DNA of 64,000 bases from an uncultured Thermoplasmata archaeon (GTDB lineage Archaea; Thermoplasmatota; Thermoplasmata; Lutacidiplasmatales; UBA184). This document shows, one piece after another, positions 8,764 to 45,007 of this stretch; the first letter of the stretch is position 1; the number at the start of each line of letters is the position of its first letter. The translations under genes were made by a program, and so were the position numbers. The stretch lies in the NCBI GenBank assembly GCA_963804525.1, contig CAWDQO010000005.1, forward strand, positions 543,261 through 607,260. Reading direction: 5' to 3'. Under the pieces are notes generated by a model. It was given only the letters and a program-made list of their open reading frames with translations, was not told where the DNA came from and did no database searches.

Positions 8764-9893
8764 GCTCGACCAGCTACCGAATCGTGGCCCTGCCCGGAGA
8801 CGGGACGGGACCCGAGGTGATCCGGGAGGGCCGGAAGGTCCTGGACGCCCTCGGGGAGAACGGACCGGCCCCCTGGACGGTCGACGAGCGTCCGGGCGGC
8901 GCGCAGTACTACCTGAAGACCGGGAAGGAGCTTGACCCGGAGACCCTGACCGCCGCCCGGGACGCCGACGCACTCCTCCTCGGGGCGGTGGGATGGCCCG
9001 GCGCCTCGCTGCCGAACGGGGACATCGCCGGCGCGGCTCTGGTCCTCGGGATGCGCCAGAACCTCGACCTCTATGCGAACGTGCGGCCGTGCAAGCTCTA
9101 CCCGGGCGTGCTCCACCGGATCGGAAAGTCGTACCAATCGGTCTGGCCGCCCGAGCTCGTCGACATGGTGATCATCCGCGAGAACACGGAGGGGCTCTAC
9201 ACCCCGGCCCGCGGCCGGCTGCGCCGCGCCGAGGAGACCGAGGTCGCGATCGACACCCGCGTCATCACCCGGAAAGGGGCCGAGCGGGTCATCCGGTACG
9301 CGTTCGACCTCGCCACCCGGAGGCCTCGCGGCGCGCCGGAGGACGGCGTGAAGCGGGTCACCTGCGTCGACAAGTCGAACGTCCTCGAGGGGTGCCGGTT
9401 CTTCCGGGAGACGTTCGACCGGGTCGCGAAGGACTACCCGACGATCGAGAAGGACTACGCGCTCGTGGATGCGTTCACCCAGTGGCTCGTGCGAAACCCC
9501 GAGCACTACAACGTCGTGGTCTCGACCAACATGATGGGCGACATCATCACCGACCTCGCCAGCGTCCTGCAGGGCGGGATGGGGTTCGCGGCCGGGGGGA
9601 ACATCGGCGACCACCACGCGATGTTCGAGCCGGTCCACGGCAGCGCCCCGAAGTACGCCGGCAAGAACCAGGTGAACCCGTTCGCGACGTTCGCGGCGGT
9701 CGAGATGCTCCTCCGCTGGCTGGGCGAGCGCAACTCCGATACCGCTCTTCTCCGCCAGGCGGACCGTCTGGGAACCGCCGTCGCGACGACGATCGCGGCG
9801 GGGACCGCGCGGACGTACGACCAGGGCGGCCACGTCTCCACGAGCGAGGCCGGCGACCGGGTCGCCGACGCGGTCCGGGCGGTGCCGGCATGA
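8760..9893 (+). CDS. leuB: 3-isopropylmalate dehydrogenase (isocitrate/isopropylmalate dehydrogenase family)
   Basis: YRIVALPGDGTGPEV, NLDLYANVRP, MMGDIITDLAS; ATGA overlap with the leuD stop. Confidence 0.85.
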   Translation: MSSTSYRIVALPGDGTGPEVIREGRKVLDALGENGPAPWTVDERPGGAQYYLKTGKELDPETLTAARDADALLLGAVGWPGASLPNGDIAGAALVLGMRQNLDLYANVRPCKLYPGVLHRIGKSYQSVWPPELVDMVIIRENTEGLYTPARGRLRRAEETEVAIDTRVITRKGAERVIRYAFDLATRRPRGAPEDGVKRVTCVDKSNVLEGCRFFRETFDRVAKDYPTIEKDYALVDAFTQWLVRNPEHYNVVVSTNMMGDIITDLASVLQGGMGFAAGGNIGDHHAMFEPVHGSAPKYAGKNQVNPFATFAAVEMLLRWLGERNSDTALLRQADRLGTAVATTIAAGTARTYDQGGHVSTSEAGDRVADAVRAVPA

Positions 9894-11602: not shown

Positions 11603-11711
11603 CGCCGTTCGCTCATCGACCCCGGGAGCGCCGGAACCGGCGCCGCTCCGCCGACAAATCGACCCGCACGACCTTCCGGAGTGGTCCGGGACCTTCGGGG
11701 TCCGGTGGCTA

Positions 11712-11718
11712 TTTATAC
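11712..11718 (+). promoter_or_regulatory. TATA box (ATTTATAC) upstream of aglB
   Basis: AT-rich heptamer 46 nt before the ATG at 11765; the upstream in-frame ATG at 11681 lies 5' of it and is therefore rejected as the start. Confidence 0.5.
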
Positions 11719-11764
11719 GGGGCCTAGGTCTCGCGCCGCGCCGTTATCGGAGAGTCGGCGACCG

Positions 11765-29151: not shown

Positions 29152-29727
29152 CCGGTGACGCCCGGGACCGGACTGGCCGCCGGGAGGCCGCTTCGGCCGC
29201 CCTCCGCGTTGCCTCGCGCCGGCGCTGGACCGGGTCGATCCAGTACCGGAGCTCGGTCGTCGGGTGGAACCCGACCCGTTCGTAGACCCCCCGGCCCATC
29301 GCCGAGGCGTGCAACGTGACGCGCGCGTACCCCAACCGCTTCGCCAGCGCGATCGCCCGCCGGACCACCGCGGTCGCGACCCCACGCCCCCGGGCCCTCG
29401 GCGTCGTGTAGACGGAGAGGACGTACGGGACGCGGAGGTCGTCGATCCCGGGCCGGGGGTGCGTCGGCTGAAACCAGACCGCGCCGCTCCCGAGCGATCG
29501 GCCGTCGGTGCCCTCGGCGACCCAGGCGACCATCTCGCCCGAGGCGACCCGGGGGACCATCCAGGCGAGGTACGCGCATCCGTGACGGACGATCGCGGGC
29601 TCGGGCCGGTCGCCCATCTCCCGGAACATCGCGAGCCGGTGCCGGACGAGGAGGTCGGTGTCGGCGAGCGTGGCGCGTCGGAGGACGAACCCGAGGGGAG
29701 GGGCCGGCCGCGCGCGGGGAGCCATCG
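29114..29727 (-). CDS. GNAT-family N-acetyltransferase
   Basis: Start MAPRARPAPPLGFVLRRATLADTD (rc 29725-29727); motif RARGRGVATAVVRRAIALAKRLGYARVTL. Confidence 0.65.
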
Positions 29728-29772
29728 GTGTCGGACCCGGGCGCGGGAAATAAGCGACCTGCCGCCCGGGCG

Positions 29773-30246
29773 TCAGTCGAGCTGCCGCCGGAACCGCTCG
29801 GCGACCTCGCGGGCGAGACCGACGAGCCGGACCACGCGGCCCTCGTCCGGCGCCTCGACGATCAGGACGATCCGCGGGGTCCCGACGCGGAGCTCGACCT
29901 GGCGGGTCGGGTCGAGCATCTCCGGGGGGGCCGCCCGCCGTCGCAGGAACCCCGGCGGGTCGCGGAAGTCCATCCGGACCCGGATCGTCCCGAGGTGCTC
30001 GGCGGCCGCGAACATCGTCCGCTCCTCGACCGTCCGCTCCCACTGGCGGAGCCCGATCCCACCGCGGCGTCGCTCGACCTCGACCCAGGGGCCGAGGACG
30101 AGCTCGCGGTACGTCGCGTACTCCTGCGTCCCCCGGAACGCGAGGTCGAGGTAGCCGAGCAGGAACCCGAAGGCGACGGGCCGGTCGTCGATCCCGGACC
30201 CATCGAGCGGGTCCGACCTGGGGTTCGGTTCCGCGGATCCGGCCAC
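29773..30246 (-). CDS. hypothetical protein (157 aa)
   Basis: Composition is protein-like rather than Arg-junk; lies between the AIM24-like cluster and the GNAT gene on the same strand. Confidence 0.4.
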   Translation of the reverse strand: MAGSAEPNPRSDPLDGSGIDDRPVAFGFLLGYLDLAFRGTQEYATYRELVLGPWVEVERRRGGIGLRQWERTVEERTMFAAAEHLGTIRVRMDFRDPPGFLRRRAAPPEMLDPTRQVELRVGTPRIVLIVEAPDEGRVVRLVGLAREVAERFRRQLD

Positions 30247-30274
30247 GTTCGTCCGGGTCCTCCGAGCGGATGGG

Positions 30275-30943
30275 TTATCCCGGACTCCCCGGGGTGTGCT
30301 TCGACGGGTCGATCGTCTGGAGGTAGACGTCCCCCGGGCCCTCCACCCGGAGCGCCTCGAAGCTGAGCGCGTGGCCGACGAGCCCCCCGCCGAGCGGCTG
30401 GTTGTACGCGCGGACCGAGACCGACGCGTCCTTCATCACGAGGGCGCCGTGGTCGACGTCCATCGCCTCCTTCTCGGCGAGGGTGAACTTGAGGATGTTC
30501 CCGTGTCCCTGGAATGCGAACGTGCCGGGGCCGGTGAGCCGGTCCATCCAGAACCCGATCATCCGGCCGACCCGTCCGGTCCCCGCGATGTAGAATGTGT
30601 CGTAGCCGATCGTGTTCGTCGCGAGGAGGAGCGAGTGTTCCGCGACATCGACCGCCTTGCCGGGCTCGAGCATCACGACCCGGGTCTCGCCGGGGCGGAA
30701 CCGGCTGAAGGCCACGTAGCCGGGACCGGTATACTCGTGGAGCTGGAACGGGAGCCCCCCGAACAGCGTCCGCTTCATGGCCCCGAGGACCCCGCCCTGG
30801 GTCAGCCAGCGGTACCCGAACCCGATCGTCGGGTCGGAGAACACCATCAGCCCCCCCTCGCAGAAGATCTGCTCCCCGGGGCCGAGGGTCGCGAGCGCGA
30901 CCGGGATGAAATCGCCTTTGATGTCGACCTGCATCGGGGTCAC
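30275..30943 (-). CDS. AIM24/TIGR00266 (DUF124)-like protein, paralog 1 (intact)
   Basis: 222 aa; shared motifs with two upstream paralogs (..L.PGE......G.M......, LTGPG, G.GNIL, GGGL.G). Confidence 0.6.
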   Translation of the reverse strand: MTPMQVDIKGDFIPVALATLGPGEQIFCEGGLMVFSDPTIGFGYRWLTQGGVLGAMKRTLFGGLPFQLHEYTGPGYVAFSRFRPGETRVVMLEPGKAVDVAEHSLLLATNTIGYDTFYIAGTGRVGRMIGFWMDRLTGPGTFAFQGHGNILKFTLAEKEAMDVDHGALVMKDASVSVRAYNQPLGGGLVGHALSFEALRVEGPGDVYLQTIDPSKHTPGSPG

Positions 30944-31603
30944 TCTCCGCTGTGGACGAGGACGGTCCCGGGGCCGAACAGGTCAAGGACCGGGAGGGGA
31001 GCCGCGCCGGTCGAGGCCATCGCCGGGCTCGCGAGCCAATCGATCCGGAGCTGGACAGTATTCGCCGAGGCGAGCAACCCGGCGACGCTCGTGCGCATCG
31101 CCTCGCCCGGTTTGAGGTCGAACGACAGGATGTTCCCGTACAGACTGGTAAACGATCGTGCCGGGTCCGGTGAGCTCGTCGGCGAACAGGTAGGTGACCG
31201 GCCGCTGGCCGTTCGCATCCGGGTAGGGCGCCGGGTACTGCGCGAGGACCATCGGGTAGTACCGTACCGTCTCGTCGAAGCAGATCAGGTGGCCGTCCCG
31301 CAACCGGAGCGTCTGTCCCGGAGCGAGCTGGAGGACCCGGACCTCCCCGCCCTTGTCGCGCGAGAACGAGACGTGGCCCGGACCCTCGAACTCGGCGAAG
31401 AAGTAGCTCTCGTCGTTGTCCCCGAGCGCGTGCATCCCCATCAGGTGGCCCCGACTGACGCCGAGCGACTTCATCGTCCGCCGGTGCACCTGGACCTGGT
31501 GCTCCTTGTAGAGCATGAGGCCGTGGGAGGCGAGCACCTTCTCCCCCGGGCGGAGCGTGACGAGGACCGCGGGGGCGATCCCCCCGACCGAATCGGCCTG
31601 CAT
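30940..31603 (-). CDS. AIM24/TIGR00266-like protein, paralog 2; single-nt indel near 31141-31147
   Basis: Frame A ...ADELTGPGTIVYQS continues in frame B LYGNILSFDLKPGEAMR...VLVHSGE*; stop overlaps the paralog-1 ATG. Confidence 0.55.
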
Positions 31604-31609
31604 CGCTAC

Positions 31610-31798
31610 CTACGTCACCGGGCGGTCGTCGACGGCGAGCGCGAACGCCCCCCCGCAGTACTCGCAGCGGGCGTACCCGCCCTCGATGTTCTTCGCCGCG
31701 ATCTTCGCTCCGCACCCCTTGCAGCTCAGGTCCTGCAGGGAGGCGCGGCTGATCGTGACCTCGGTCCGCTTCTTGACGAACTCTTCCGGGATCGGCAT
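31610..31798 (-). CDS. small Zn-ribbon protein (62 aa)
   Basis: MPIPEEFVKKRTEVTISRASLQDLSCKGCGAKIAAKNIEGGYARCEYCGGAFAL; GGGAGGAGAG Shine-Dalgarno 5-8 nt upstream; embedded between AIM24 paralogs 3 and 2. Confidence 0.55.
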   Translation of the reverse strand: MPIPEEFVKKRTEVTISRASLQDLSCKGCGAKIAAKNIEGGYARCEYCGGAFALAVDDRPVT

Positions 31799-31814
31799 CC
31801 GATTCTCTCCTCCC

Positions 31815-32463
31815 TCAGAAATGGGCGACCTTCGGGTCGATGCTCTGGACCGCGACCTTCCCCGGCCCGGTGAGCTCGAGGACCTCGATACGCTTCGAGC
31901 TTGCCGAGGAGACCCCCGCCGAACGGAAGGTTCACCGTCTTGGCGGTGACCCCGCCGTCCTTCCAGAGGAGCCCGCCGAGGTCGACGTGGATCACCTCGC
32001 GCGGGGCGAGGGTCATCGAGATGATGTTGCCGTAGCCGTGGATCGCGACCTTGCCGGGGCCGGTGAGGCGGTCGAGCCACAAACCGGCCATCCGGCCGGG
32101 GCGGTGGGTCCCCTTCACGTATTCCATCCCGTACTGGATGTGGGCGTCGGCGCACAGGAGCGACCCCTCGGCGACGTCGATCGTCTGGTTCGGCACGAGG
32201 TCGAGGATCCGGACCTCCCCGGTCCCGTCGCGCGAGAGGCCGACATGCCCGGGGCCGGTAAACTCCGTGAGGAAGTACGGAATGCCGCCCACGGTCGTCC
32301 GTTCGAGCGTCTGGAGCATTCCCCCACCCTGAATCGTCTTCCGGGAGACGCCCACGGGAGGGTCCTTGAACAGGAGAATCCCGTGCTCGCAGTAGATCGA
32401 TTCGTTCGGGGCGAGCGTGGCGAGCACGGTCGGCACGAGCCCGGGCAAACACTCGAGTTCCAC
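31815..32463 (-). CDS. AIM24/TIGR00266-like protein, paralog 3; indel in or next to the C5 run 31914-31918
   Basis: Reading with one G fewer gives PFGGVSSASSKRIEVLELTGPGKVAVQSIDPKVAHF*, collinear with the paralog-1 C-terminus. The ORF as written drifts into Arg-rich junk. Confidence 0.55.
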
Positions 32464-32502
32464 GGTCGTCGGGTCGGCGAACCGCTCGGTACTATGAGAG
32501 GC

Positions 32503-33363
32503 TTACTTCGTCGCAGCCCCCGGCGGCCGGCCCGGCGGGGCGGATGCGGTCCGGTCGGCCCCGAGGAGGTCCATCACTCCAGATCCGAGCCACTGCCCCC
32601 CGTCGACGGCGAGGACCTGACCGGTGACGTACGAAGCGCGTCGACTGGCGAGGAACGCCACCGCCTCCGCGACCTCCTCGACGGTCCCGAACCGTTGCAG
32701 CGGGATCTCCCGCCGCACCGCTTCCACCACGGCCGGGCTCGTCCAGAGTCGCTCGTTCGTCCCCGCGGTCCGCACGGGACCCGGGGCCACGGCGTTCACG
32801 CGGATCCCATGGGGGGCCCATTCGACGGCAAGCGTCCGGGTGAGGGCGAGGACCCCGGCCTTGGCCGCGGCGGAGTGGGCCGTGCCCGGACCGGCCATCC
32901 AGGCGTACGAGGCCACGATGTTCACGATCGCGCCCTCGCGCCGGGCGCGGAGGAGCGGGAAGGCGGCTCGGGAGACGAAGAACGTCCCGTCGAGGACGAT
33001 CCCGACGACCGCGCGCCACCCGTTCGGGGAGATCGACTCCGCCGGGGCCACGAAGTTCCCGGCGGCGTTGTTGACGAGGAGGTCCAGTCGGCCGAACTCC
33101 GCCGTGACCCGGGCGATCAGCCGGTCGACCTGCGCCGGGTCGCGCACGTCGGTGGGGACCGTCACAACCCGGGCTCGGGTCGGGGCGAGCGTCGCAGCTC
33201 CCGCGGCGAGGTGCTCGGGCGAACGGCTGGCGAGAACGAGGTCGTACCCGCCGGTGGCCAGCCGTACCGAGATCGCGAGGCCGATCCCCGTGCCCCCGCC
33301 CGTCACGAGCGCGACGGGTCGGGCGCCGTCGGTCCCAGGGGAGTTCGCGTCGTTCTGCGCCAC
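32503..33363 (-). CDS. short-chain dehydrogenase/reductase (SDR)
   Basis: VALVTGGGTGIGLAI Rossmann motif, NNAG, catalytic Y...K context (SYAWMAGPGTAHSAAAK); GTG start. Confidence 0.8.
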   Translation of the reverse strand: MAQNDANSPGTDGARPVALVTGGGTGIGLAISVRLATGGYDLVLASRSPEHLAAGAATLAPTRARVVTVPTDVRDPAQVDRLIARVTAEFGRLDLLVNNAAGNFVAPAESISPNGWRAVVGIVLDGTFFVSRAAFPLLRARREGAIVNIVASYAWMAGPGTAHSAAAKAGVLALTRTLAVEWAPHGIRVNAVAPGPVRTAGTNERLWTSPAVVEAVRREIPLQRFGTVEEVAEAVAFLASRRASYVTGQVLAVDGGQWLGSGVMDLLGADRTASAPPGRPPGAATK

Positions 33364-33469
33364 TGTTCCCCACCCCACGGCCCGTCCGGAAGTCCCGCGG
33401 CCGCACGATCGGGGCGACACGTGGCGTGAAGTTCATAGCGGGGACGGTCATGCGGCGAGTCGGAACGCC

Positions 33470-36400
33470 ATGCGACGAGTCGGTTGGGGCCAACGCCGGC
33501 CCCGGCCTCTCGCGGGGCTCGGCGTGGCGGCGATCCTCGTCGTGCTACTCGCCCCCGGCGCGACGGGGAACACCGCGCTCGGAAGCTCGGGGGGCCATGG
33601 TGCGGCACACCGGACCGCCCTCATTCCCGCGACACCGAACGCCCGCCGCTCGGCGTACGGCCTCGGTTGGCACAACCTGACCGGCGCGAGCCCACAGGCC
33701 CCGGGGGTGCTCGGCGGGATGGTCCTCGTACCCGACCCGGACACCGGCGGCCTCCTCCTCTTCGGGGGGTCCGGTCCCGGCGGCTCCTCGAACGCGACGT
33801 GGCTGCTCAACGGCTCCAATTGGATCCCGTGGGCGGGCTCGGGGCCGTCCCCCTCACCGCGCTCCGGCGCGCAGGGTGCGTGGGACCCGTCGGAGGATGG
33901 CGTCCTCGTGTACGGTGGGATCGAGCCCGACGGAAACCCCTCGCTGAACGACACCTGGCTGTTCCGCGACAATGCGTGGACGAACCTCACCCCGACCGTC
34001 GTCGGGAACCCCGGCCCCGGGGCGGGGGCTCGCTCGCGGTCGACCCGACGACGGGCGCCGCGGTCCTCTACGGGGGCGTCATCGCATCCGCGACGTTCAC
34101 GACCACCACGTGGACGTTCGAGGACGGGACGTGGACGAACATCACGGCCTCCGCCGGGACACCCCCGCCGGGCCGGGTCTTCTCGGCCATGACGGCGGAC
34201 GCGACGTTGGGGGGGTCGTCCTCTACGGCGGCCAGGACTACGGAACCGCGAACGACAACGACACCTGGCTCTTCCGGAACGGGACGTGGCACGAGCTCGC
34301 GCCGAGGATCAACCCGGGGACACTGCGCGGCGCATTCCTTGCCGACGACTCAACGTACGGAGCGGCCATCCTTTTCGGGGGCGACACCTCGGGGAGCGGG
34401 ACTCCCACGAACGAGACTTGGGCGCTCAACGGGGCGGGCAACTGGACGGACCTCACCGCCGAGGTCGGGTTGCCCCCGAGCGCCCGGTGGACCGGGGCGA
34501 TCGCCGACGACCCTTGGCTCGGCGGCGTCGTCCTCTTCGGTGGCTGCCAGGCGATCGGCTGTGCCGTCGCAACCAATCAGACCTGGTTCCTCGAGATCCC
34601 GCCGCTCGCCGTGACCCTGACCTCGCCCGACCCGTCCCCAGCGTCGGGAGTCCCGGTTCAGTTTGTGGCCCAAGTGGCGGGCGGGGTGCCCCCCGTCCGG
34701 TACACGTTCGCGCCGGGGGATGGCGCCGTGGTCGCCGCCGACAGCGGGACCGCGAATTACACGTACGCCGCGTGCGGAACCTTCGAGGCCTCGGTCTCCG
34801 TCTCGGACTCGGTCGGGGTGCGCGGGGGGTCCAACCGGCTGCTCATCGACGTCGGCTCGATGCACGCGGCGTCGTGGTGCTCGTTGACCGGACCGGGGGC
34901 CCCGGCGGCCGGGGGGCTCCCGCCGCCGCCTACGACCCATCGCTCGCCGCCGAGGTCGTCTTCGGGGGGTCCTTGCCCGACGACGCCGCCGCAGGCGATA
35001 CGTGGCTGCGGACCGACTCCGGCTGGGCTCCGGCGGAGGACGCCGGCCCCGGCCCGTCGGCACGTGCCGACTCGAGCAGCTGGTACGACCCGACCGAAGG
35101 AGGCGTCGTTGTCTTCGGGGGCCAGACGGCCCTCGGCACTCTCGTCAACGACACGTGGCTCTTCACCGGGACGTGGTCGAATATCACGGCCCAGGTCGGG
35201 GCGGCCCCGTCGCCCCGGTTCCAACCCGCGGTGGCGTACGACTCGACCGCCCACGAAGCGGTCCTGTTCGGGGGTCTCGATGCGGGGGGGTCGCCGCTGA
35301 ACGACACCTGGGTGTTCACGGGCGGACGGTGGTCCAACGTGACGGCAAGTGCCGGAGCCGCCCCCTCGGCGCGCGATTGGGCGTCGGCGGCCGATGACCC
35401 ATCCGATGGGGGGATCGTCCTGTTCGGCGGGCAGTTCTGCTCCGGGGACCTCCTCTGCGGCGACACCTGGACGTTCAATGGCTCCGGGTGGCACACGGCC
35501 GCGGTCGTCGGGCCCACGCCGTCGCCGCGGAGGGGGGTCCAATTCGCGTACGACGCGGAGTACGGGGCCGACCTTCTGTTCGGCGGGGCCGTTTCCAGTC
35601 CGGGACCGAACGGGACCGTCGGGGCGAACGACGCCTGGACGCTCGTCGGCTCGACGTGGACCAACGTGACTACGTACTTCGGTACAGCTCCTCCGGGCCG
35701 GTGGGCCGCGGCGATGGACTATGACCCGGCCCTTGGCGGTCTCCTCCTGTTCGGCGGCTGCACGGCGCTCGATTGCGCCTCGGCCGTGAACGACACCTGG
35801 TCGCTCGCGATCCCGTCGTTGGTGGTCACGCTCCAGGAATCGATCTCCGCTACCTCCGCCCCAGCGAACGCCTCGCTGGGCGCCACGGCGGCCGGTGGGC
35901 TCGGGACTCTCACGTTCTCGTGGACGTTCGGGGACGGGACGTCCGACAACCGAACGTCGACCAGCGAGCTCCAGCACGAATACCGCGCGAACGGCAACTT
36001 CTCCGGCGCGTTGACGGTGACCGACGTCGCCGGAGTGACCGAGGTCGACTCCTGGACGGTCAATCTGACCGCGAACAACACGACCCATCCCCACGGGACG
36101 ACGCCGCTCCCGAAGCCGCACGTGATGGCGGAGGGGACGCCCGCCTGGTACGGCTGGGCAGAGCTCGGGGTCGTGGTGGCGGCGGCCGCCGCGATCGTTG
36201 CAGTCGGCGTAGGGAAGTGGCGCTCGCGGAAGGGGCCGCCCACGACGCTCGGCAACGCTTCCCCCGCGCCGTCCGCGCCTCCGGCGGGGGTCGCCGCGGC
36301 GCCCCCGGAGCTCGCTCCGGGACCACCCTCGTTCCCCCCCGAGGCCGCCGCCGTCCCGGGGTCCCTCGACGCCGGCGCCGGATCCGGGATGGCGTCGGGC

Positions 36401-36733
36401 GCCGGTGCGTCGGAGGGCGGGGACCGGTTCGGAGCGGGCGGTTCGCTGGGCGATCGGATCCTGATCCACCTCCACCGGCAGGGCCGACTCGGCCCCCAGG
36501 AGCTCGCCTCGCTCTCAGTCACCCAGGCCGGGTTGTCCGATGCCCTCGGTCGCCCCCAATCCGCGTTCGCGAGGACCCTCCAGCGCCTCGAATCGACGGG
36601 GTTGGTGTTCACGGAGCTGCGGCACGTAAAAGGGGCGAGTCGGCGACTGAAGGTCTATCGGCTCACTCCCGTGGGCGAGCAGAGGGCGGCCGAGATCCGG
36701 TCCCGGAGCGGGCCCGGTTCCGAGTCCCCGTAA
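33470..36733 (+). CDS. ~1,090-aa surface protein: signal peptide, Kelch-type beta-propeller blades, PKD domain, second Kelch propeller, second PKD domain, TM helix, Pro/Ala-rich linker and cytoplasmic winged-helix (MarR/TrmB-like) domain; frame broken by 3 homopolymer indels (~34005-34030, G7 at ~34208-34216, G6 at ~34905-34912)
   Basis: MRRVGWGQRRPRPLAGLGVAAILVVLLAPGATG. Repeated W.N.T....P.PR.....YD......VLFGG.....NDTW.F blades. PKD-like TFSWTFGDGTSDNRTS. TM WAELGVVVAAAAAIVAVGVGKWRSRKG. C-terminus DRILIHLHRQGRLGPQELASLSVTQAGLSDALGRPQSAFARTLQRLESTGLVFTELRHVKGASRRLKVYRLTPVG. Confidence 0.6.
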
Positions 36734-36772
36734 GTCGGGCCAGGGCCTCCGCCCCGTCGGGGGTCGCGCCCC

Positions 36773-36818
36773 TGCCGTACGACGTGGAAACGTGCCGTAC
36801 GGGCCCCCGATGCCGTAC
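36773..36818 (+). promoter_or_regulatory. three direct repeats of TGCCGTAC spaced 20 and 18 bp, between the wHTH-ending Kelch gene and the promoter of its paralog
   Basis: cctGCCGTACgacg / cgtGCCGTACgggc / gatGCCGTACcggg at 36773, 36793, 36811; followed by TATA-like GTTTATCT at 36842-36849. Confidence 0.3.
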
Positions 36819-36842
36819 CGGGGGCATAGCTGCGCTGGCAGT

Positions 36843-36849
36843 TTATCTG
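36843..36849 (+). promoter_or_regulatory. TATA-like box (TTTATCT) 23 nt upstream of the GTG start of the Kelch-2 gene
   Basis: Same motif and spacing as at leuA and at 49979. Confidence 0.35.
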
Positions 36850-36872
36850 GTCCGACCTCCCCAGCCTCCCTC

Positions 36873-38532
36873 GTGTCCGACGCGACCCGCTCCCAAATCC
36901 GCCTTCGGTTGACCGCGCTCTTCGGCGTGCTCGGCGTATTCACCGTCGCCGGGATCGTCCTGCTCAGCTCGGGGGCCGCGGCCTCCAGCCATGCCGCCCC
37001 CACCGCCGCCCTCCCGATGGCGAGCCCCGCGCAGTGGGCGCAGCTCGTCCCGGCCGTTTCTCCCCGGGCTCGCCGCGGGCGGGGCCATGGCGTACGACCC
37101 GGTCGACGGCTACCTCGTGCTGTTCGGCGGGTGCGACAGCGGAAACTTCTGGTTCTCGACGTCTACCCCACCAACCAGACCTGGGTCTACCAGAACGGCA
37201 GCTGGAGCCAACTTTCCCCGACCGTTTCGCCCCCGGCCCGGTACGACGCGAGCCTCGCCTGGGATGGGGAAGCCCAGTCGCTGGTCCTGTTCGGCGGGAA
37301 CGGATCCGTCACCACCGGGTTCCTCAACGACACGTGGACGTTCGTCCACGGCCAGTGGACCCAGCAGCACCCGACGGTGAGCCCGCCGGCGCGCGCCGCC
37401 GCCGCGATGGTCTACGACGCCCGCGACGGCTATGTGCTCCTGGTCGACGGCGAGCAGTACCCGGACCCTCACGAACGCCGCGACGTACACCTACGTCGGC
37501 GCCGACTTCAACGACTCCTGGGCGTACTCCGGCGGGAACTGGACGCAGCTCCACCCGACCGACAACCCCTCAGCCCGGGACTCGATGAGCATCACCTACG
37601 ACCCGATGCTCGGGGAGGTCGTCCTCTTTGGTGGATTCAACTGGACGACGTACAACCTGGACGACACCTGGGCGTTCTCCGGTGGGCAGTGGTCCCCGGT
37701 CGCGACCTGGGGGGTCGGGTCGGGCGTGACGTACGTCGTTGCCCCGGCGGACCGCAACAACGCGGCGTTCGCCTACGACCCCGCCCTCGGGACCGACGTG
37801 CTCTTCGGCGGCCACAGCGGGTACGCGTTCTACTCGGACACCTGGGAGTTCAATGGCTCGTTCTGGTTCCAGCTGAACAGCTCGAGCTCCCCGTCGCCGC
37901 GGTGGGGCGCGAGCATGGCCTACGACCCCGCCGCCGGGTGCATGATCCTGTACGGAGGCTACACCACGGGGAACGCGTGGAACAACACCGCGGGCACCTT
38001 CTTCAACGACACCTGGTCGATCGGATGCGGCAACGCAACGGGCGGGTCGGGCGGCGGCAACGGATCCGGGAGCGGCAACGGTTCCGGCGGGAACGGGTCC
38101 GGGAGCGGCAACGGTTCCGGCGGGAACGGGTCGGGGAGCGGCAACGGCTCCGGCGGCAACGGGTCTGGGTCGGGCAGCGGCTCCGGCGGGGGCAACGGCT
38201 CGGGGACCGGAAACGGTTCTGGGAGCGGAAGCGGCTCCGGAAACGGCAGCGGCTCCGGTGGGAGCGGCGGCTCGGGAACGGGCGGCGGCTCCGGCGGAGG
38301 GAACGGCTCCGGATCCGGCAATGGCTCTGACGTGGCCCACCCCGGCGGTAGCCCGGGACGTGGCTCCGTCGCGTCGCCGATCACGACGCCGTCGGCCGCG
38401 GGGGCGCCCGCCGCGGGACCGTTCGGGTCCTCGGCGATGGTGAGCCCGGTGGGGTTCCTGCTCTACGTGCTGCTCTCGGTCGGGCTCCTCATGTTCGTCG
38501 TCGTCGTGAGGCGCCGGTCCCAGCGCCGCTAG
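36873..38532 (+). CDS. Kelch-repeat surface protein 2: N-terminal signal anchor, ~5 Kelch blades, (NGSGSG)n sequon array, C-terminal TM anchor; 3 frame breaks (~37060-37075, ~37140-37165, ~37460-37472)
   Basis: GTG start VSDATRSQIRLRLTALFGVLGVFTVAGIVLL. Blades ...AMAYDPVDGYLVLFGG, WSQLSPTVSPPARYDASLAWDGEAQSLVLFGG, SMSITYDPMLGEVVLFGGFNW, AFAYDPALGTDVLFGG, ASMAYDPAAGCMILYGG. C-terminus VGFLLYVLLSVGLLMFVVVVRRRSQRR. Confidence 0.55.
38040..38335 (+). repeat. in-frame tandem repeat (unit ~33 nt ggcaacggttccggcgggaacgggtccgggagc, ~9 copies) encoding an Asn-Gly-Ser sequon array
   Basis: Translates to GNGSGSGNGSGGNGSGSGNGSGG...; every NGS is an N-glycosylation sequon. Located in the stalk between the Kelch domain and the membrane anchor. 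Confidence 0.75.
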
Positions 38533-38644
38533 GACGGAACGAGCGGCCTGCCCCGCGACTGGGGGCCAACTCCTTCCCAACCGCGCGGGTGCCGGGGTGC
38601 GAGCGTCGGGCTCCCCCCTCCGGGCGGCGTGAGACGACCGGTCG

Positions 38645-40852
38645 ATGGGACTCAAGCCTCCTCGATTAATACCGGGCGTTGGTCCTCGCCCCGTGCGAGT
38701 CCCCTCCCGCGTACGGCCGGCTCCCCGGCGCGCGATTCGGGCGGCGAGCCTCGCCATCGCGCTCGGGATGCTGATGACCGCGCTCCCGGCGTCGCTCGGA
38801 GCCGCGGGGAACGGCCCCACGTCCCCCCCGAGCCGAGCCCTCAGCGTCGGCGCCGCCCTGCCCGCAGGGTCGACCCACTTGGCGGTCGCCGCACTCCCGC
38901 ATCCCCGCACCGTGCCGCACCGGATGCTGTCCGGAGGGCTCGTGATCGACCCCAACGCTTCGTACACGTCGGAGCCGGCCCCGATGGGCATCACCGACTA
39001 CGGCGTCACCCCGTCCGGGGTCGGGTACTCGTATGCCACTCCGGTCGTCCAGGGGAGCGCGACGATCGATTCGTTCGCCGTCGCCGACGGCTCCTCCGGG
39101 ACGAACATGACGTTCCAGCTGAACGTCGAGGACGTCGTGGTGAGCGGCTCGTCTTCGTTCGTCTTCTGGGTCCAGGACGTCGCGTTCTTCGACACCCAGT
39201 CCCACCTGATCTTCTGGGAGGACAACGTCTGGAACCTCACCGGGGGGACGGGGAATCTCTACACCTCGTCGGTCGCCGGGAACGGGACGGTCTACTCGAG
39301 CTACTACTACGCGGACGTCGCCAACGGGTACCCGGGTCCGGGGTCGTCCTCAGCGAGCCGACAACGATCAGCGCCCGGGTCGTCGCCACCAACGCCTCCG
39401 GCACTCCCCACGTCGGGTTCGAGTACTCCGACGGCGACGGCTGGGTCACCTTCGACAACGTCACGTTCCCGTTCACCTCGGTCGGGGTCGAAGAGGGGTT
39501 CCTCGTCGACGGCTTCGACTACACCCCGTCGGGCGGGTACTACGACGCCGAGTGGGACCTGAGCGGACCGGGCGGGGGCCAGACGCAGGCGATCCGTACC
39601 GCGGACATGAACCTCAGCCTCTCGGTCTGGAACGGGCACAATCTGCAGGCCGTGCGGGCGGCGTACAACCACGGCGGGAACACCGCGGAGTCGATGTCGA
39701 ACGCGATCGACGGGTTCGCGGCGGACAACGCGACGGGGGCGCTCTACGCCCATACGGTGAACGGAAGCGGGGGGCTCGGCGCCCTGTACGGCCCCGGTTC
39801 CACCTCGACGCTCCGGGTCATCACGGCGAACGTCGAGCGCCGGCACGCTCGCGCTGAACGGGACCGACGTTTCGTTTATCGGCTCGCTCGCGAACCTGAC
39901 CCTCGCCCCTGGGACGTACACGGTCGACCTCGAGGTGAACGGGAGCGTCGTCGGCTCCGCCAACGTGACGCTCGTCGCCGGGGAGTTCCTCGCGATCACG
40001 ATCGCGCCGTACAACTACTACCCCCTCCGGTTCGTTTCCTATGGGCTCCCGACCGGGCAGCCGTGGTCGGTGACGGTCGCGGGGGTCCCCCTCTCCGGAA
40101 CGGACGCTGCGCTCCTCCTGTCGATGCGTTCCGGGAACTACTCGTACGACGTCGCGGGGGTCGGCGGCTACTACCTCCCGACATATGCGGGGGTCGTGGA
40201 CGTCCCCGCCACGGACCTGGTCACCCTCAGCTGGCTCCCGACCGTCTACGTCTCGGAATTCCTCGCGGAGAACGACCCGGGAGGAGTCCCGTGGAACGTC
40301 GCCGTCGATGGGCAGAACGTTTCGGGCACCGCGCTCGCCCTCTTCGTTTCCCTGCCCAACGGGACGTTCGCCTACGCGGCCTCGGCCCCGCGAGCGGAGT
40401 CGCTCTATCCCGCGACCGGGGACGCGCAGGTGGCCGGCGCCGGCACCATGGTGTACATCTCGTTCGCCGTTTCCCCCGGGGTCCTCCGGGGGTCGATCGT
40501 TCCCGGCTTCGCCCACCTGACGGTGGCGGGGACCCCGGAGAACGTGTCCGACGGGGCGTTCGAGCTCTCGCTCCCGCCCGGAAATTACACGGTCGTCGCG
40601 ACCCTCGCGGGATACCAGCCGTACTCCGGGAGCGTCTCGCTCGCCGCCGGGGGAACCGAGTCCCTGAACATCACGCTCGTCCCGGTACCCGCCACCCCCG
40701 GCTCCAATTCGTCGTCCCACCCGGGAGGGCTCTGGGGACTCGCCTGGAGCTCCTGGGCCTTGATCGGGCTCGGCGTCGCCGCCCTCGTGGCCCTCGCGGC
40801 GATCGCAGCCCTCCGGCGGCCTCGGCCCCCCGCCCCCGCTCGGACCCAATAG
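38645..40852 (+). CDS. secreted, C-terminally TM-anchored thermopsin-like (peptidase A5?) protein; 2 frame breaks (~39335-39345 in a G-run, ~39830-39845)
   Basis: N-terminal signal, then GITDYGVTPSGVGYSYATPVVQGSATIDSF...FQLNVEDVVVSGSSSFVFWVQDVAFFDTQSHLIFWEDNVWN, recalled as a thermopsin-family pattern (family call tentative). C-terminal beta-sandwich repeats and anchor WSSWALIGLGVAALVALAAIAALRR. Confidence 0.45.
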
Positions 40853-41018
40853 CGACGGGTCGCGCGGGCGGCACTCGCCGGAGCGTAGACCCCCGGCGTA
40901 CGAGACCGCAGACCGCCCGCCCATGTCCGGAGCTCGTCGCTCGCGCGTCCGGGCCGGGACCCACAAAGACCTTCGGACAACGTGCTCTTCCAACCCCGCA
41001 AGATCCCTGCGTCAAGGT

Positions 41019-41744
41019 ATGAGGACGGAAGCTGGACCGGCCGCGTTGGACGCGCGGCGCCGAACGCTCCGCGGTTCCGGTCCGGTCGTCGGGATCGACC
41101 TCGCGGGGAGCGAGACGCGACGGACCGGATTCTGCCGGATGGAGGTCGACCTCCGGACCGAGACGGAGGTGCTCGGGCCGGACGCCGAGATCGTCGCGGC
41201 GGTCCGGGCCGCCGCGCCCCGCGTCGTGAGCATCGATGCCCCCCTCTTCCTCCCGCTCGGGCGGCCGTCGATCGAGACGCCGGGCCCTCCGCACCTGCGG
41301 GCGTCGGACCGGGTCCTCCTTCGCCTCGGGATCCGGTTCTTCCCGATCTCCCTCGGGCCGATGCGGGTCCTGACGACCCGGGGGCTCCGGCTCCGCGCGG
41401 CGCTCGAATCCGAAGGGTTCCGAACGATCGAGGGGTATCCCGGAGCCGGTCAGGACCTCCTCGGGATCCCGCGGAAGGGGGCCGGGGTCGATGCGCTGCG
41501 GGCCGGGCTCGTCCGGGCCGGTCTCACGGGCGGGATCGAGGACGGTCGGACGACGCACGACGAGCTCGACGCGGCGTCCGCGGCGTACCTCGGGGACCGG
41601 TTTCTCGCCGGCGACTTCGTCGCCGTCGGGGACCCGTCCGAGGGGTGGATGGTCCTCGCGCCGCAGGCAGCGGCCCTGGCCCGGCTGCGGGCGAGCGCAG
41701 GGCGAACGGTCAAGCCCCGCCCCGCGCTGCGGTCCGGTCGATGA
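41019..41744 (+). CDS. hypothetical protein with RNase-H-like VVGIDLAGSE N-terminus (possibly DUF429)
   Basis: MRTEAGPAALDARRRTLRGSGPVVGIDLAGSETRRTGFCRMEV...; family assignment tentative. Confidence 0.45.
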   Translation: MRTEAGPAALDARRRTLRGSGPVVGIDLAGSETRRTGFCRMEVDLRTETEVLGPDAEIVAAVRAAAPRVVSIDAPLFLPLGRPSIETPGPPHLRASDRVLLRLGIRFFPISLGPMRVLTTRGLRLRAALESEGFRTIEGYPGAGQDLLGIPRKGAGVDALRAGLVRAGLTGGIEDGRTTHDELDAASAAYLGDRFLAGDFVAVGDPSEGWMVLAPQAAALARLRASAGRTVKPRPALRSGR

Positions 41745-42381
41745 CGTTCGATGAGATGTACCGGGACGGCCACCCCCCCTGGGATATCGGCCGGCCGCAG
41801 TCGGAGGTCCTCCACCTCCTCGAGGAGGGGGTCGTGATGGCGCCGGTGCTCGACATCGGGTGCGGGACGGGGGAGACCGCCCTCGCCTGCGCGGCGCGGG
41901 GACTCGCGGTCCGGGGGATCGACGGCTCGCCGACCGCGGTCGAGCGGGCCCGCGAGAAGGCGAAGGCCCGCGGCCTCGACGTCCGGTTCGATGTGGGGGA
42001 CGCGCTCTCGCTCGGGGGCCTCGGCGAGACGTTCCGGACCGTCCTCGACTGCGGTCTCTTCCACGTCTTCGACGACGCCGACCGGGTCCGGGTACGCGTC
42101 GAGCCTGTTCGAGGCGATCCGACCGCGGGGGTCCGCGTTCGTCCTCGCCTTCAGCGACGCCGAGCCGAACTGGGGCGGTCCGCGGCGGGTCCGGGCGGAG
42201 GAGTTCGAGGCGGCGTTCGGCGAGCGGTTCGAGGTCGTCGAGGTCCGTCGCGCCGGGTTCGAGACGACCGACCCGGCGCAGCTCGTCCAGGCCTGGCGGG
42301 TCCGCCTCGACCGGCGGGCCCGGCTGTTCCGGGACGCGAACCCGGCGGCCCCGGTCCCGAAGGACCCCACCCGGGGCCTAG
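41741..42381 (+). CDS. class I SAM-dependent methyltransferase (TehB/TPMT-like); frame break ~42085-42095, 3' end uncertain
   Basis: ATGA overlap with the upstream gene. MTFDEMYRDGHPPWDIGRPQ, motif I VLDIGCGTGETAL. After DDADRVR the protein continues in another frame (YASSLFEAIRPRGSAFVLAFSD...). The TAG at 42379-42381 would be the stop if a further shift to frame 1 exists. Confidence 0.45.
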
Positions 42382-44189
42382 GTCGGGGCCGGGGGTCGCG
42401 CCCCCAACTGCTCGGCGAAGAACTCGGCGGCCCGACCGTACGCCCGCTCGCGGTTCGTCCGCCCGACGATCCCATGCCCCTCGTCGTCGAACATCATCAG
42501 CTCGACCGTCCGGCCGTGCGACCGGAGCGTGTCGACGATCTGCTCGGCCTCGCGGGCGGGGACGCGCGGGTCGTTGCGGCCGTGGATGACGAGGAGCGGG
42601 GCGGTGATCCGGTCCGCGTGATGGATCGGGGAGATCGAGGTGAGGAACTCCCGGTCCTGGTCGAGCCTCCCGTACTCCGCCTCCCGCACCGCCCGCCGCC
42701 ACGGGCCGGTCTCCTCGAGGAACGTGACGAAGTTCGCGATCCCGACGATGTCGACGCCGGCCCCGAACAGCTCCGGGTACGTCGCGAGCGACGAGAGGAC
42801 CATGAACCCGCCGTAGCTGCCGCCGAGGACCCCGATCCGGCCCCGCTCGGCGTGGCGGACGCGGACGAGGTGCTCGACGAGGTCGTTGAGGTCCCGGACG
42901 CTGTCCATCCGGAGGCGGACGTCGTCGAGGTGGACGAACGTGCGGCCGTACCCGAGCGACCCGCGGACGTTCGGCACGACGAGCCGCCACCCCTCGGCGA
43001 CGAGGAACTGGCGGAACCGGTTCAGGCCGGGGCGGGCCTGCGCCTCCGGGCCCCCATGGACCTCGACGATCGTCCCCCGGGCCGGCCCGACGGGGGCGTA
43101 CTCCCAGTACGGCACCTTCGTCCGGTCGGAGGCGACGCACGTGCCGAGCTTCGGGGGGCTCAACCGGACCGGCACCGGGCGGGCCGAGGTCGTGAGGCGA
43201 CGGGGCTTCCCCGTCTCGATCGACCGCCGGTACACCTCCACGCCGTCGACGGAGGAGAGGTCGTGGGCGAACGCGGTCCCATCCGGTGCCCACGAGACGT
43301 GGGAGACGACGCCGTGGGGCGACGTCGGCAGGGGCCGGTCGGTCCCGGTCGATGGCTCGTAGAGGTGGAGCTCGGTCCAGCCGTCCCGGTTGACTCCGAG
43401 GAGGAGGGAGTTCCCGTCCGGGCTCGCCCGGACGATCTCGACGTCGCCGGGGTACTCGCGGAGGAACTCGTGCCCGGGCCGGCCGGGCCGGTACCGCACG
43501 AGGGCGGCGAATTCCCGGCCGGGGTTCGCGGCCGCGTAGACGGCATCGCGGGTCAGGTCGGCCCCGAAGACCGTCTCCTCCCCCTCGTGGGGGTTCAAGT
43601 GGACGACCCGGTCCCCCTCGAGGAGGAGCAGGTCGACGTCGAGGTTCGTCTTGCTCCGCGCCACCAGGGCCCGGTCGGCGTCCGCCGCGACGACGTCGTG
43701 CAACGAGTCGCCGGCGAGGAGGACCCGGGGGGTCGGGTCCGGCGATTGCACGGGGAGGGTGTAGACGTCGAAAAATCGTTGGTCCCGCGCGTTCGACGCG
43801 AACAGGTAGTCGTTTCCACCGGGTCGCCACGCCCCTGCCGAATGGATCACCTTCGGGGAGTTCGTCAGCGGCCGCAGGGACGCTTTCGGCGAATCAGTGC
43901 CGCTGAGGAGCGCGAGCTGCCAATGCTCGTCCCCGCCCGAGTCGACCGAGATGACGGCGGTCGCGGCGGTCGGGGAGGCGTGGACGGTGCCGACGCGTCG
44001 GCGGACGGGGGAGATCGGCGACGACGACCCGCCGCCCGCCGAGACCCGGAACGCCTGCGGGAGCTCCCCGGGGTCGGAGAGGTAGAGGACCGATTCTCCG
44101 TCGAACGCCATCGAGGGTTGGTAGGAGGCGGCGACGTCGAACCAGGTCCGCAAGCGCTCGCGGAGCGCGACGGGGCCCGATTGAGCCAT
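42378..44189 (-). CDS. S9-family serine peptidase (prolyl oligopeptidase / acylaminoacyl-peptidase-like)
   Basis: Start MAQSGPVALRERL (rc 44187-44189). N-terminal beta-propeller region; catalytic GGSYGG nucleophile motif; C-terminal D and H context (VIHGRNDPRV, DDEGHGI). Confidence 0.85.
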   Translation of the reverse strand: MAQSGPVALRERLRTWFDVAASYQPSMAFDGESVLYLSDPGELPQAFRVSAGGGSSSPISPVRRRVGTVHASPTAATAVISVDSGGDEHWQLALLSGTDSPKASLRPLTNSPKVIHSAGAWRPGGNDYLFASNARDQRFFDVYTLPVQSPDPTPRVLLAGDSLHDVVAADADRALVARSKTNLDVDLLLLEGDRVVHLNPHEGEETVFGADLTRDAVYAAANPGREFAALVRYRPGRPGHEFLREYPGDVEIVRASPDGNSLLLGVNRDGWTELHLYEPSTGTDRPLPTSPHGVVSHVSWAPDGTAFAHDLSSVDGVEVYRRSIETGKPRRLTTSARPVPVRLSPPKLGTCVASDRTKVPYWEYAPVGPARGTIVEVHGGPEAQARPGLNRFRQFLVAEGWRLVVPNVRGSLGYGRTFVHLDDVRLRMDSVRDLNDLVEHLVRVRHAERGRIGVLGGSYGGFMVLSSLATYPELFGAGVDIVGIANFVTFLEETGPWRRAVREAEYGRLDQDREFLTSISPIHHADRITAPLLVIHGRNDPRVPAREAEQIVDTLRSHGRTVELMMFDDEGHGIVGRTNRERAYGRAAEFFAEQLGARPPAPT

Positions 44190-44289
44190 TCGAAGTTCGC
44201 GAGACGAGGCGGGGGATAAGGGCCCCGCCGCACGCGCGGGACGGCGACCTCGGGCGCGACGAGATAAGGACGGGACGCTCCGCGGGGCG

Positions 44290-44982
44290 ATGGCGCGGAC
44301 CGGCGGACTTGGCCGGTCCGAGGCCGAGTTCGACCGCGAGGCGGCGGGGTACGACCGGACCGCCGCCCAGACGATGCCGGGGTACGACGAGCTCCACCAG
44401 ACCCTCCTCTGGGGGATCCCGTTCTCCCCGACCCGCGGGTTCCGGGTCCTCGAGCTCGGGGTCGGGACCGGCACGTTCACCGCCCGGCTCCTGGCCCGCT
44501 ACCCGCACGCCGAGCTCGTCGGGGTCGACCTCTCCCGGCGGATGATCGCGCTTGGCCGGGCGAAGCTGCGGCGGTACCGCGACCGGGTGACGCTCCTCCA
44601 GGGGGACCTCGCCGAGTTCCCGGACGCCGAGAAGTACGACGCGGTCGTCTCGTCGCTCGCGATCCACCACCTCGCCGACGGGGCGAAGTGGAAGCTGTTC
44701 CGGAAGGTCCGCCGCTCGCTCGCCCCGGGGGGCTACTTCGGGGACGCCGACGACCACCTTCCCGAGGACCCCGTGTTCGATTCCCGGTTCGGCCAGGTCG
44801 CCCAGGAGCTGGTCGGCCACGGGACGTCCCAGAGCCTCCAGAGGGTCTGGCACGAGCACGAGGCGTTCGACCACCCGTGCGCCCTCTCCGACGAGGTCCG
44901 TCACCTGAAGTCGGCCGGTTTCTCCCACGTCGACGTTCCCTGGCGGTTCTTCGGCCAGGCGGTTGTCTGGGCGTACCGGTAG
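44290..44982 (+). CDS. class I SAM-dependent methyltransferase
   Basis: VLELGVGTGTFTARL motif I, DAVVSSLAIHH; clean 230-aa ORF; GATAAGG TATA-like element 27 nt upstream. Confidence 0.8.
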   Translation: MARTGGLGRSEAEFDREAAGYDRTAAQTMPGYDELHQTLLWGIPFSPTRGFRVLELGVGTGTFTARLLARYPHAELVGVDLSRRMIALGRAKLRRYRDRVTLLQGDLAEFPDAEKYDAVVSSLAIHHLADGAKWKLFRKVRRSLAPGGYFGDADDHLPEDPVFDSRFGQVAQELVGHGTSQSLQRVWHEHEAFDHPCALSDEVRHLKSAGFSHVDVPWRFFGQAVVWAYR

Positions 44983-45007
44983 GCCCGGGGACGCCCGCGA
45001 CGGAAGC

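Follow-up and report, generated by a model that had tools for sequence, protein, structure and literature searches.

A membrane-tethered Kelch/PKD protein with a C-terminal winged-helix domain, a probable one-component transcription regulator of uncultured Thermoplasmata

Background

Transmembrane transcription regulators (TTRs), which are defined by a recognisable DNA-binding domain and at least one transmembrane (TM) region in the same polypeptide (Demey et al. 2023), occur widely among bacteria and archaea. For archaea, 1384 TTRs have been reported from 367 species, and 56% of these proteins are single-pass (PMC10269533, Demey et al. 2023). Here we describe a gene located in a 64,000-nucleotide stretch (hereafter the window) of contig CAWDQO010000005.1 from an uncultured Thermoplasmata archaeon of the Lutacidiplasmatales (assembly GCA_963804525.1); unless another locus is named, all positions refer to this window. 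The gene encodes a protein of two Kelch beta-propellers and two PKD domains, followed by a TM helix and a C-terminal winged helix-turn-helix (wHTH) domain. As the wHTH (recognised by fold and profile, with no above-threshold Pfam match) and the one TM helix reside in a single open reading frame (ORF), the protein corresponds to the operational definition of a TTR (Demey et al. 2023), and its sequence and structural models suggest that it is probably a one-component, type-I transmembrane transcription regulator.

The bitopic TTRs ToxR, CadC and TcpP resemble this protein in that one polypeptide comprises a winged-helix domain, one TM helix and a sensor outside the cytoplasm. In ToxR and CadC, however, the order is reversed, with an N-terminal cytoplasmic wHTH of the OmpR type and a C-terminal periplasmic domain, whereas the protein studied here has a C-terminal PadR/MarR-like domain and an ectodomain of Kelch and PKD units. 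With this reversed domain order and no match to Trans_reg_C (Pfam), it falls outside the ToxR-like family. ToxR-type proteins bind direct repeats, some of them with a bitopic partner, which is reminiscent of the fused and split Kelch partners described below. ArnR and ArnR1 of Sulfolobus acidocaldarius (PMC6396743) are likewise membrane-anchored helix-turn-helix (HTH) regulators of an archaeon, and they control genes for surface structures via cis boxes upstream of the promoter. In contrast to our protein, the HTH of ArnR is N-terminal and is combined with a cytoplasmic HAMP/sensor region and with two TM helices at the C-terminus, and ArnR lacks a large ectodomain (PMC6396743). No sequence relationship to ArnR was detected.

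A similar succession of N-terminal beta-propellers with an Ig-like (Y_Y_Y) sensor, a TM segment and a C-terminal DNA-binding domain is found in the hybrid two-component systems of Bacteroides, for which ligand-induced closure of the sensor dimer has reportedly been proposed as signalling mechanism. These systems are counted as TTRs, and hybrid TTRs were found only in bacteria (PMC10269533). Apart from being bacterial, they differ from our protein by their histidine kinase and receiver modules, an AraC-type HTH and another propeller family. Matches to HisKA, HATPase or Response_reg are absent here (Pfam), and the segment between TM helix and wHTH is a disordered linker; the protein is thus not a hybrid two-component system. 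The files of the TTR census contain no PKD-bearing TTR, and Kelch domains occur there in bacterial proteins such as the GerE-Kelch protein Rcas_0145 (PMC10269533). A census based on Pfam would probably miss the wHTH described here, because the domain remains under Pfam thresholds.

Results

The initial annotation of this region had assumed one continuous reading frame after the repair of three homopolymer indels, and had considered as an alternative that the stop codon in front of a small separate wHTH gene was lost. Over the length of the gene the coding signal shifts through frames 2, 1, 0 and 2, with the changes located at 34018-34030, 34200-34212 and 34889-34931, and each change fits the loss of one base from a G/C homopolymer; the window is archaeal DNA with about 71% G+C. 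The frame is indeed continuous once three bases are restored. Residues 1 to 1087 of the repaired protein of 1088 amino acids (aa) align end to end with the intact 1090-aa orthologue P0003 at 60% identity, and the repair sites are ungapped. The fusion of propeller 2 to the wHTH is independent of any repair, since one uninterrupted raw ORF (34286..36733) spans propeller 2, PKD domain 2, TM helix, linker and wHTH up to the stop codon. The same fused architecture was recovered in four intact orthologues (Table 1). Together with the raw ORF, these orthologues rule out a chimeric ORF, and they refute the loss of a stop codon for this gene.

The other parts named in the initial annotation were recovered as well, that is, a signal-like N-terminus, a Kelch propeller and a PKD domain, a second pair of these, a single TM helix followed by RSRKG, and a linker (Table 1). 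The Kelch assignment is carried by Pfam family PF24681 (149.8 bits against a cut-off of 50, E 9e-44) together with Kelch_3 (83 bits) and Kelch_4 (60 bits), and direct reading revealed the blade pattern ...(V/L)(L/V)(F/Y)GG...N(D/x)TW in both propellers. PKD families were matched by two stretches (PKD_4 67.8 bits, PKD 45.5 bits; E 9e-19). Like the window protein, most long members of the family described below start with a hydrophobic N-terminal segment. Within the ectodomain there are 26 N-x-S/T sequons compared to 6.5 expected from composition; the tail contains one. The signal-like N-terminus, the sequons of the ectodomain, the basic cluster past the TM helix and the DNA-binding-type fold at the C-terminus make a single-pass protein with outside N-terminus and cytoplasmic C-terminus (type I) the probable topology. 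In Kelch-type members a juxtamembrane motif, GTTP(I/L)P, is conserved about 20 residues outside the TM helix (aa ~876-890 of the repaired protein; window ~36095-36140). PKD-only members (P0001, P0006, P0011) contain instead a Cys-x6-7-CGP(L/F)G loop immediately before the TM helix. Elsewhere in the window, a very long ORF of 2237 aa (11681-18394, plus strand) encodes an STT3/AglB oligosaccharyltransferase N-terminus and several CarboxypepD_reg/transthyretin-like domains, which fits with the predicted heavy N-glycosylation of the Kelch proteins.

The last 97 aa were modelled confidently as a wHTH consisting of helices H1, H2 and H3, a beta-hairpin wing and H4 (AlphaFold2, 46-sequence alignment; predicted local distance difference test score, pLDDT, 91.4). 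A model of the last 216 residues shows the TM helix, about 70 residues without secondary structure (pLDDT 42-53) and the wHTH at pLDDT 86-95. Foldseek searches against the PDB retrieved MarR-, PadR- and ArsR-type regulators at probability 1.0, including MepR, SlyA, RovA and PadR on DNA. Among solved proteins, the closest in sequence is the PadR-like Rv3488 of Mycobacterium tuberculosis (PadR subfamily-2, PDB 5zhc; E 8e-6), with which helix 3 and the wing motif RR..Y.LT..G align. Of the MarR/TrmB-type wHTH initially annotated, the fold is thus retained, and the likeness to TrmB has to be replaced by one to PadR.

With respect to family thresholds, the C-terminus shows sub-threshold Pfam matches to MarR_2, PadR, TrmB and HTH_Crp_2 (14-23 bits for the first three). 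It stays below the gathering threshold of the PadR family (PF03551), with 15.6-20.2 bits against 27 bits, and the NCBIfam PadR/Rv3488 models score 17-19 bits against cut-offs of 100-140; weak PadR matches were obtained for 20 of 91 relatives. PadR and MarR regulators are soluble homodimers with dedicated dimerisation helices, whereas here a wHTH core with one short helix ends a membrane protein of 1000 aa. Compared with PadR, fold and wing motif match, but only this one short helix (domain aa 77-90) follows. MarR proteins comprise about 140-150 aa, with N- and C-terminal helices flanking the wHTH as dimer interface; a domain of about 90 aa, preceded by a disordered linker, followed by some 10 residues and scoring 17-23 bits with MarR_2 (cut-off 27 bits), does not belong to this family.

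The wHTH is the most conserved part of the protein, with 90, 81 and 77% identity to three orthologues, compared to 26-67% for the parts of the ectodomain and 33-37% for the linker. Judged from these alignments, a fast-evolving surface part is joined to a conserved cytoplasmic part. The domain contains 15 lysine and arginine versus 7 aspartate and glutamate residues. Invariant or nearly invariant are TQxG in helix 2, the GRxQ turn which opens the recognition helix, RLE within this helix, and HVxGxxRRxKxYxLT across the wing; GRxQ and the GxxRR of the wing tip are invariant. In the comparison with locus L011, most neighbouring genes are 80-96% identical, the ectodomain of the regulator only 50-67% and its wHTH 90%. 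A second copy of the wHTH was looked for within the window and was not found.

A word-indexed search with the TM-linker-wHTH tail yielded two matches, P0001 (320 aa) and P0002 (328 aa), which both consist of a signal/PKD part, a TM helix, a Pro-rich linker and the same C-terminal wHTH. A profile built from three wHTH domains was then used exhaustively against 1.84 billion cluster representatives (50% clustering) and matched 1661 of them at E <= 1e-3 and 540 at E <= 1e-10. All matches with a named organism originate from metagenome-assembled genomes of Thermoplasmata, Thermoplasmatota or 'Ca. Lutacidiplasmatales', and in the source annotations the family appears as 'hypothetical protein' or 'PadR/MarR family transcriptional regulator'. 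There is no dedicated Pfam or NCBIfam model for it, and we found no description of the architecture or the family in the literature.

Statistics on TM helices and charge are based on the best 150 of the 1661 matches plus the window protein. The domain ends within 10-25 residues of the C-terminus in nearly all of these best 150, which reach lengths of up to 1496 aa. A hydrophobic helix lies 44-181 aa (median 74) upstream of the wHTH in 109 of the 150 plus the window protein; the net charge averages +2.8 in the 12 residues past this helix and -0.5 before it, and 96% of the 109 are positive-inside. A domain census of the 91 members with at least 280 aa revealed PKD domains in 82, Kelch domains in 17 and AAA_16/TPR modules of STAND proteins in three. 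In these three cytoplasmic, MalT-like proteins of about 730-1000 aa (P0012, L017 1449-4418; P0101; P0128), the same wHTH forms the C-terminus, at the position of the DNA-binding domain of such regulators, and the domain is therefore also the output of a soluble architecture. Besides Kelch/PKD ectodomain proteins and STAND ATPases, the wHTH occurs on bare TM anchors and in small stand-alone soluble proteins.

In about 15 of the 17 loci with usable flanks, a Kelch domain is either fused to the wHTH or encoded beside the wHTH gene, a pattern which speaks for a joint function of the Kelch ectodomain and the tethered wHTH. Split systems are present in L018 (2213-5447; NCBI GCA_037025365.1), L008 (1353-4672), L010 (2882-6288) and L007 (2813-6285). 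The product of their first gene has 720-890 aa and a signal-Kelch-Ig/PKD-TM layout, and it carries a short cytoplasmic helix that is conserved (e.g. RARLQRQGEELVRELR). The product of their second gene is of the PKD-TM-wHTH kind in L007 and of the TM-linker-wHTH kind in L008, L010 and L018. In L018, the wHTH gene is annotated to start downstream of an in-frame TM segment, before which there is no canonical start codon.

Just past the stop codon of the regulator gene, and upstream of the TATA-like box of the next gene, we detected a repeat array (Table 1). The 8-mer TGCCGTAC occurs five times in the window, compared to 0.88 occurrences expected, and three of the five are in the array. Copy number (three) and spacing are identical in L003 and L011, although the spacers differ. 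L012 has two degenerate copies and L013 one, and in both of these loci the distance between the proximal element and the TATA box is fixed. The same element was found at the same place in L014, which lies in an unrelated genomic neighbourhood, between the gene for an 852-aa single-propeller member (P0009, wHTH 59% identical) and an 892-aa Kelch gene. The array, that is one to three GCCGTAC direct repeats and a GGCATA(C/G).TGCG element, is thus kept in six loci, one of them non-syntenic, at a set distance before the TATA box of the Kelch gene next to the regulator. Site arrays just upstream of the transcription factor B recognition element (BRE) and TATA box occupy the usual position of archaeal activators, and we hypothesize that the GCCGTAC array is a candidate operator bound by this wHTH. 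Other GCCGTAC clusters are present neither in the window nor near the other subfamily members in L001 and L015-L017, and the motif is therefore not a family-wide signature. The regulator gene itself is preceded by a conserved block, GAAGTTCATAGCG, in the short divergent intergenic region common to the SDR gene, which we infer to be a TATA-like element. No known RNA families were found in 33300-38700 at E <= 0.1.

The gene downstream of the array, the candidate target, encodes a further Kelch surface protein with a long stalk of the (GSGNGSG)n type and RRRSQRR past its C-terminal TM helix; with the propellers of P0003, its own shares about 33-37% identity. It is likewise broken by assembly frameshifts, and its orthologues in L011, L012 and L013 comprise 471-548 aa.

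The four orthologous loci come from independent assemblies and share their gene order, with three AIM24 genes and an SDR gene on the minus strand, and the regulator gene, the smaller Kelch gene and a thermopsin gene on the plus strand. In the window, the three tandem AIM24-family genes (30275-32463, minus strand) enclose a 62-aa zinc-ribbon-like ORF (31616-31798, minus strand); they are kept upstream of the regulator, together with the SDR gene (32503-33420), in L011, L012 and L013. In each of the five syntenic loci, the second gene downstream of the regulator is the thermopsin-family protease gene (38629-41022, plus strand, in the window); a thermopsin gene in L001 (954-4421) lies about 5.6 kb from the PKD-TM-wHTH gene of P0001. 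A tblastn comparison of the window with the proteins of L011, a syntenic contig from a metagenome, revealed at least ten single-base frame breaks in six genes within about 15 kb (window ~29700-45000), and several of the broken genes are still 80-96% identical to their L011 orthologues. As the neighbouring genes break at the same density, the frame breaks of the regulator gene are, on the evidence of this comparison, sequencing or assembly errors (under-calling of homopolymers) and not gene decay, and a pseudogene was ruled out on these grounds. Homopolymer indels are systematic in this assembly, and ORF-based readings of the window therefore need frame repair.

Table 1. Coordinates of the regulator gene, its parts, adjacent elements, frame breaks and corresponding features in other loci
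Feature	Position	Strand	Basis or remark
Whole gene, membrane-tethered Kelch/PKD-wHTH protein, 1088 aa after 3 restored bases	33470..36733	+	ORFs, frame repair, Pfam, orthologue alignment
N-terminal signal peptide or signal anchor (MRRVGWGQRRPRPLAGLGVAAILVVLLAPGATG)	33470..33565	+	Direct reading: basic n-region, then hydrophobic core
Kelch beta-propeller 1, six blades, aa ~56-378	33635..34600	+	Pfam Kelch families; repeated ...GG...(N)xTW motifs counted
PKD domain 1, aa ~379-468	34602..34870	+	Pfam PKD 390-450
Kelch beta-propeller 2, six blades, aa ~469-782	34872..35812	+	Pfam PF24681, best stretch 497-697
PKD domain 2, aa ~783-872	35815..36082	+	Pfam PKD_4 791-862
Single TM helix WAELGVVVAAAAAIVAVGVGKW, then basic cluster KWRSRKG	36155..36217	+	Hydrophobicity; AlphaFold helix 22-48 of tail model
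Disordered Pro/Ala/Gly-rich cytoplasmic linker, ~70 aa	36218..36442	+	A17, G15, P14 of 70 residues; pLDDT 42-53
PadR/MarR-like wHTH, net charge +8	36443..36709 (stop codon ends 36733)	+	Sub-threshold Pfam matches, fold model, Foldseek, profile
Conserved promoter-like block GAAGTTCATAGCG, ~30 bp before ATG	33428..33440	+	Near-identical in orthologous loci L011 and L003
Candidate operator array: TGCCGTAC at 36773, 36793, 36811 (20 and 18 bp apart), then related GGCATAGCTGCG at 36823	36773..36834	+	
TATA-like box GTTTATCT of downstream Kelch gene, 29 bp before GTG (36873)	36841..36848	+	GGTTTAT in six loci
Adjacent gene, candidate target: signal/TM, Kelch propeller, Gly/Ser/Asn-rich stalk, C-terminal TM helix	36873..38532	+	ORFs, orthologues
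Frame break 1 of regulator gene, G5 run, 1 G missing, frame 2 to 1	34024..34028	+	Ungapped against P0003 once repaired
Frame break 2 of regulator gene, G7 run, 1 G missing, frame 1 to 0	34209..34215	+	Ungapped against P0003 once repaired
Frame break 3 of regulator gene, G5C4 run, 1 base missing, frame 0 to 2	34895..34903	+	Ungapped against P0003 once repaired
Frame breaks, two AIM24 genes	~31141, ~31886		
Frame breaks, downstream Kelch gene (at least 2)	~37150, ~37470		
Frame breaks, thermopsin	~39335, ~39838		
Frame break, methyltransferase	~42085		
Intact orthologue P0003, 1090 aa	L011		
Intact orthologue, 1099 aa	L003 3001-6300		
Intact orthologue P0004, 1103 aa	L012		
Intact orthologue P0005, 1113 aa	L013		
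Array in other loci	L003 6335-6380; L011 7338-7383; L012 ~6722-6760; L013 ~9372-9400; L014 ~5168-5215		

Discussion

The initial proposal of an extracellular propeller sensor, connected through one TM helix to a cytoplasmic C-terminal wHTH, is supported by our analysis as an architecture; its function as a DNA-binding regulator is a deduction from domain content, fold and context. If the protein acts as a regulator, a ligand, a surface contact or the neighbouring Kelch protein might drive the association of ectodomains or TM helices, which would set the local concentration and geometry of the monomeric wHTH domains. The domains thus gathered could then occupy tandem DNA sites from the end of the flexible 70-aa tether while still bound to the membrane, and the best candidate target would be the GCCGTAC array which precedes the BRE/TATA of the neighbouring gene for a Kelch surface protein. 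Such an association model seems the most economical one, because the wHTH is isolated and lacks the dimerisation helices of soluble PadR and MarR proteins.

Several points weigh against a regulator of this kind. The topology rests on simple rules, and the wHTH scores under every Pfam and NCBIfam cut-off and lacks the helices which soluble PadR/MarR proteins need to dimerise. The GCCGTAC array could serve some other factor. It is absent around the PKD-only members of L001 and L015, whose recognition helix is almost identical, and in the regulator's own promoter, where an autoregulatory copy was looked for, there is none.

A different mode of action would be the release of a latent transcription factor through regulated proteolysis of the kind known from Notch, SREBP or RsgI, in which a signal at the ectodomain leads to a cut within or close to the TM helix or linker, and a soluble linker-wHTH fragment is set free. 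The protein shares with the Notch type a signal peptide, a repeat-rich glycosylated ectodomain, one TM helix and a C-terminal part that acts in the nucleus or, here, would act on the nucleoid; the two are not homologous, however, there is no evidence of cleavage here, and the Notch intracellular domain is a co-activator and not a wHTH. Type-I topology and the long disordered linker would suit this mechanism, as would the conserved juxtamembrane GTTP(I/L)P motif of Kelch-type members and the secreted protease encoded near the regulator gene in all five syntenic loci and near that of P0001. Separate genes for soluble linker-wHTH proteins also exist, so that the domain is presumably able to function untethered. 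However, no intramembrane protease gene was seen beside the gene, neither the TM helix nor the linker, which is poorly conserved as a whole (33-37%), revealed a conserved cleavage motif, and thermopsin is an extracellular acid protease without a known signalling role. We regard proteolytic release as unlikely, and it would in any case be compatible with, rather than opposed to, a function as transcription regulator.

Less probable still, though not negligible, is that the wHTH serves as a protein-protein or nucleoid-anchoring module, for example by linking surface glycoproteins to a partner in the cytoplasm or by holding DNA at the membrane with no regulation of specific genes. Winged helices are known as protein binders in other systems. 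The recognition helix is nearly invariant over hundreds of paralogues with different ectodomains, which would fit one common partner; the absence of dimerisation helices is consistent with docking too, and the conserved short cytoplasmic helix of the Kelch partner in split systems (R..R..GEE.V..LR) is a possible docking element. On the other hand, the closest relatives by sequence and by structure are all DNA-binding regulators, the basic residues of the wing tip are invariant and the domain has a net charge of +8, it takes the place of the DNA-binding domain in STAND regulators, and a conserved repeat array lies beside the gene. That the fusion or the whole gene is an artefact, created by a stop codon lost in assembly or by decay into a pseudogene, is very improbable and already largely refuted despite three frame breaks within 3.3 kb and the split sensor/wHTH arrangements of other Thermoplasmata, as the part from propeller 2 to the wHTH is one raw ORF, four intact orthologues, from independent assemblies of the Illumina type, agree with it in fused architecture and in length, every break is a single-base loss in a G/C homopolymer, breaks are equally frequent in neighbouring genes, several of which are 80-96% identical to their counterparts, and the repaired protein aligns with P0003 without gaps at the repair sites.

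The probable transmembrane regulator described here had initially been thought to represent no described archaeal regulator class. This does not apply to the concept, as TTRs are known in archaea (PMC10269533), but it does apply to topology, domain set and family, for which no description was found. What is new is the type-I orientation, in which the DNA-binding domain is C-terminal, its PadR/MarR-like character without dimerisation elements, the glycoprotein ectodomain of Kelch and PKD units, and the expansion specific to Thermoplasmata, in which Kelch partners are either fused or split off.

Conclusions

More broadly, we tentatively suggest a lineage-specific mode of signalling in Thermoplasmata, in which Kelch/PKD surface glycoproteins would, as receptors, be coupled by fusion or through a neighbouring gene to a tethered PadR-like wHTH that reads tandem GCCGTAC-type repeats in front of archaeal promoters and feeds back on the Kelch coat of the cell. 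As a type-I ('Notch-topology') family with more than 1000 sequence clusters, these proteins might conceivably be a main outside-in route of the class. Thermoplasmata are nearly devoid of two-component systems, as 11 genomes together contain three histidine kinases and four response regulators (PMC5847659), and the family may be all the more important for this reason.

How archaea sense their surroundings is poorly known, especially for the wall-less or S-layer-poor Thermoplasmata without two-component systems. The 1661 representatives form a large family in which an extracellular glycoprotein sensor is wired straight to a DNA-binding fold. Censuses of transmembrane regulators that are based on Pfam probably undercount those of archaea. 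The wHTH of the regulator, the GCCGTAC array as operator and the adjacent Kelch gene as target make up a concrete candidate trio, and the natural fused and split variants may be useful for dissecting how a signal passes across the membrane.

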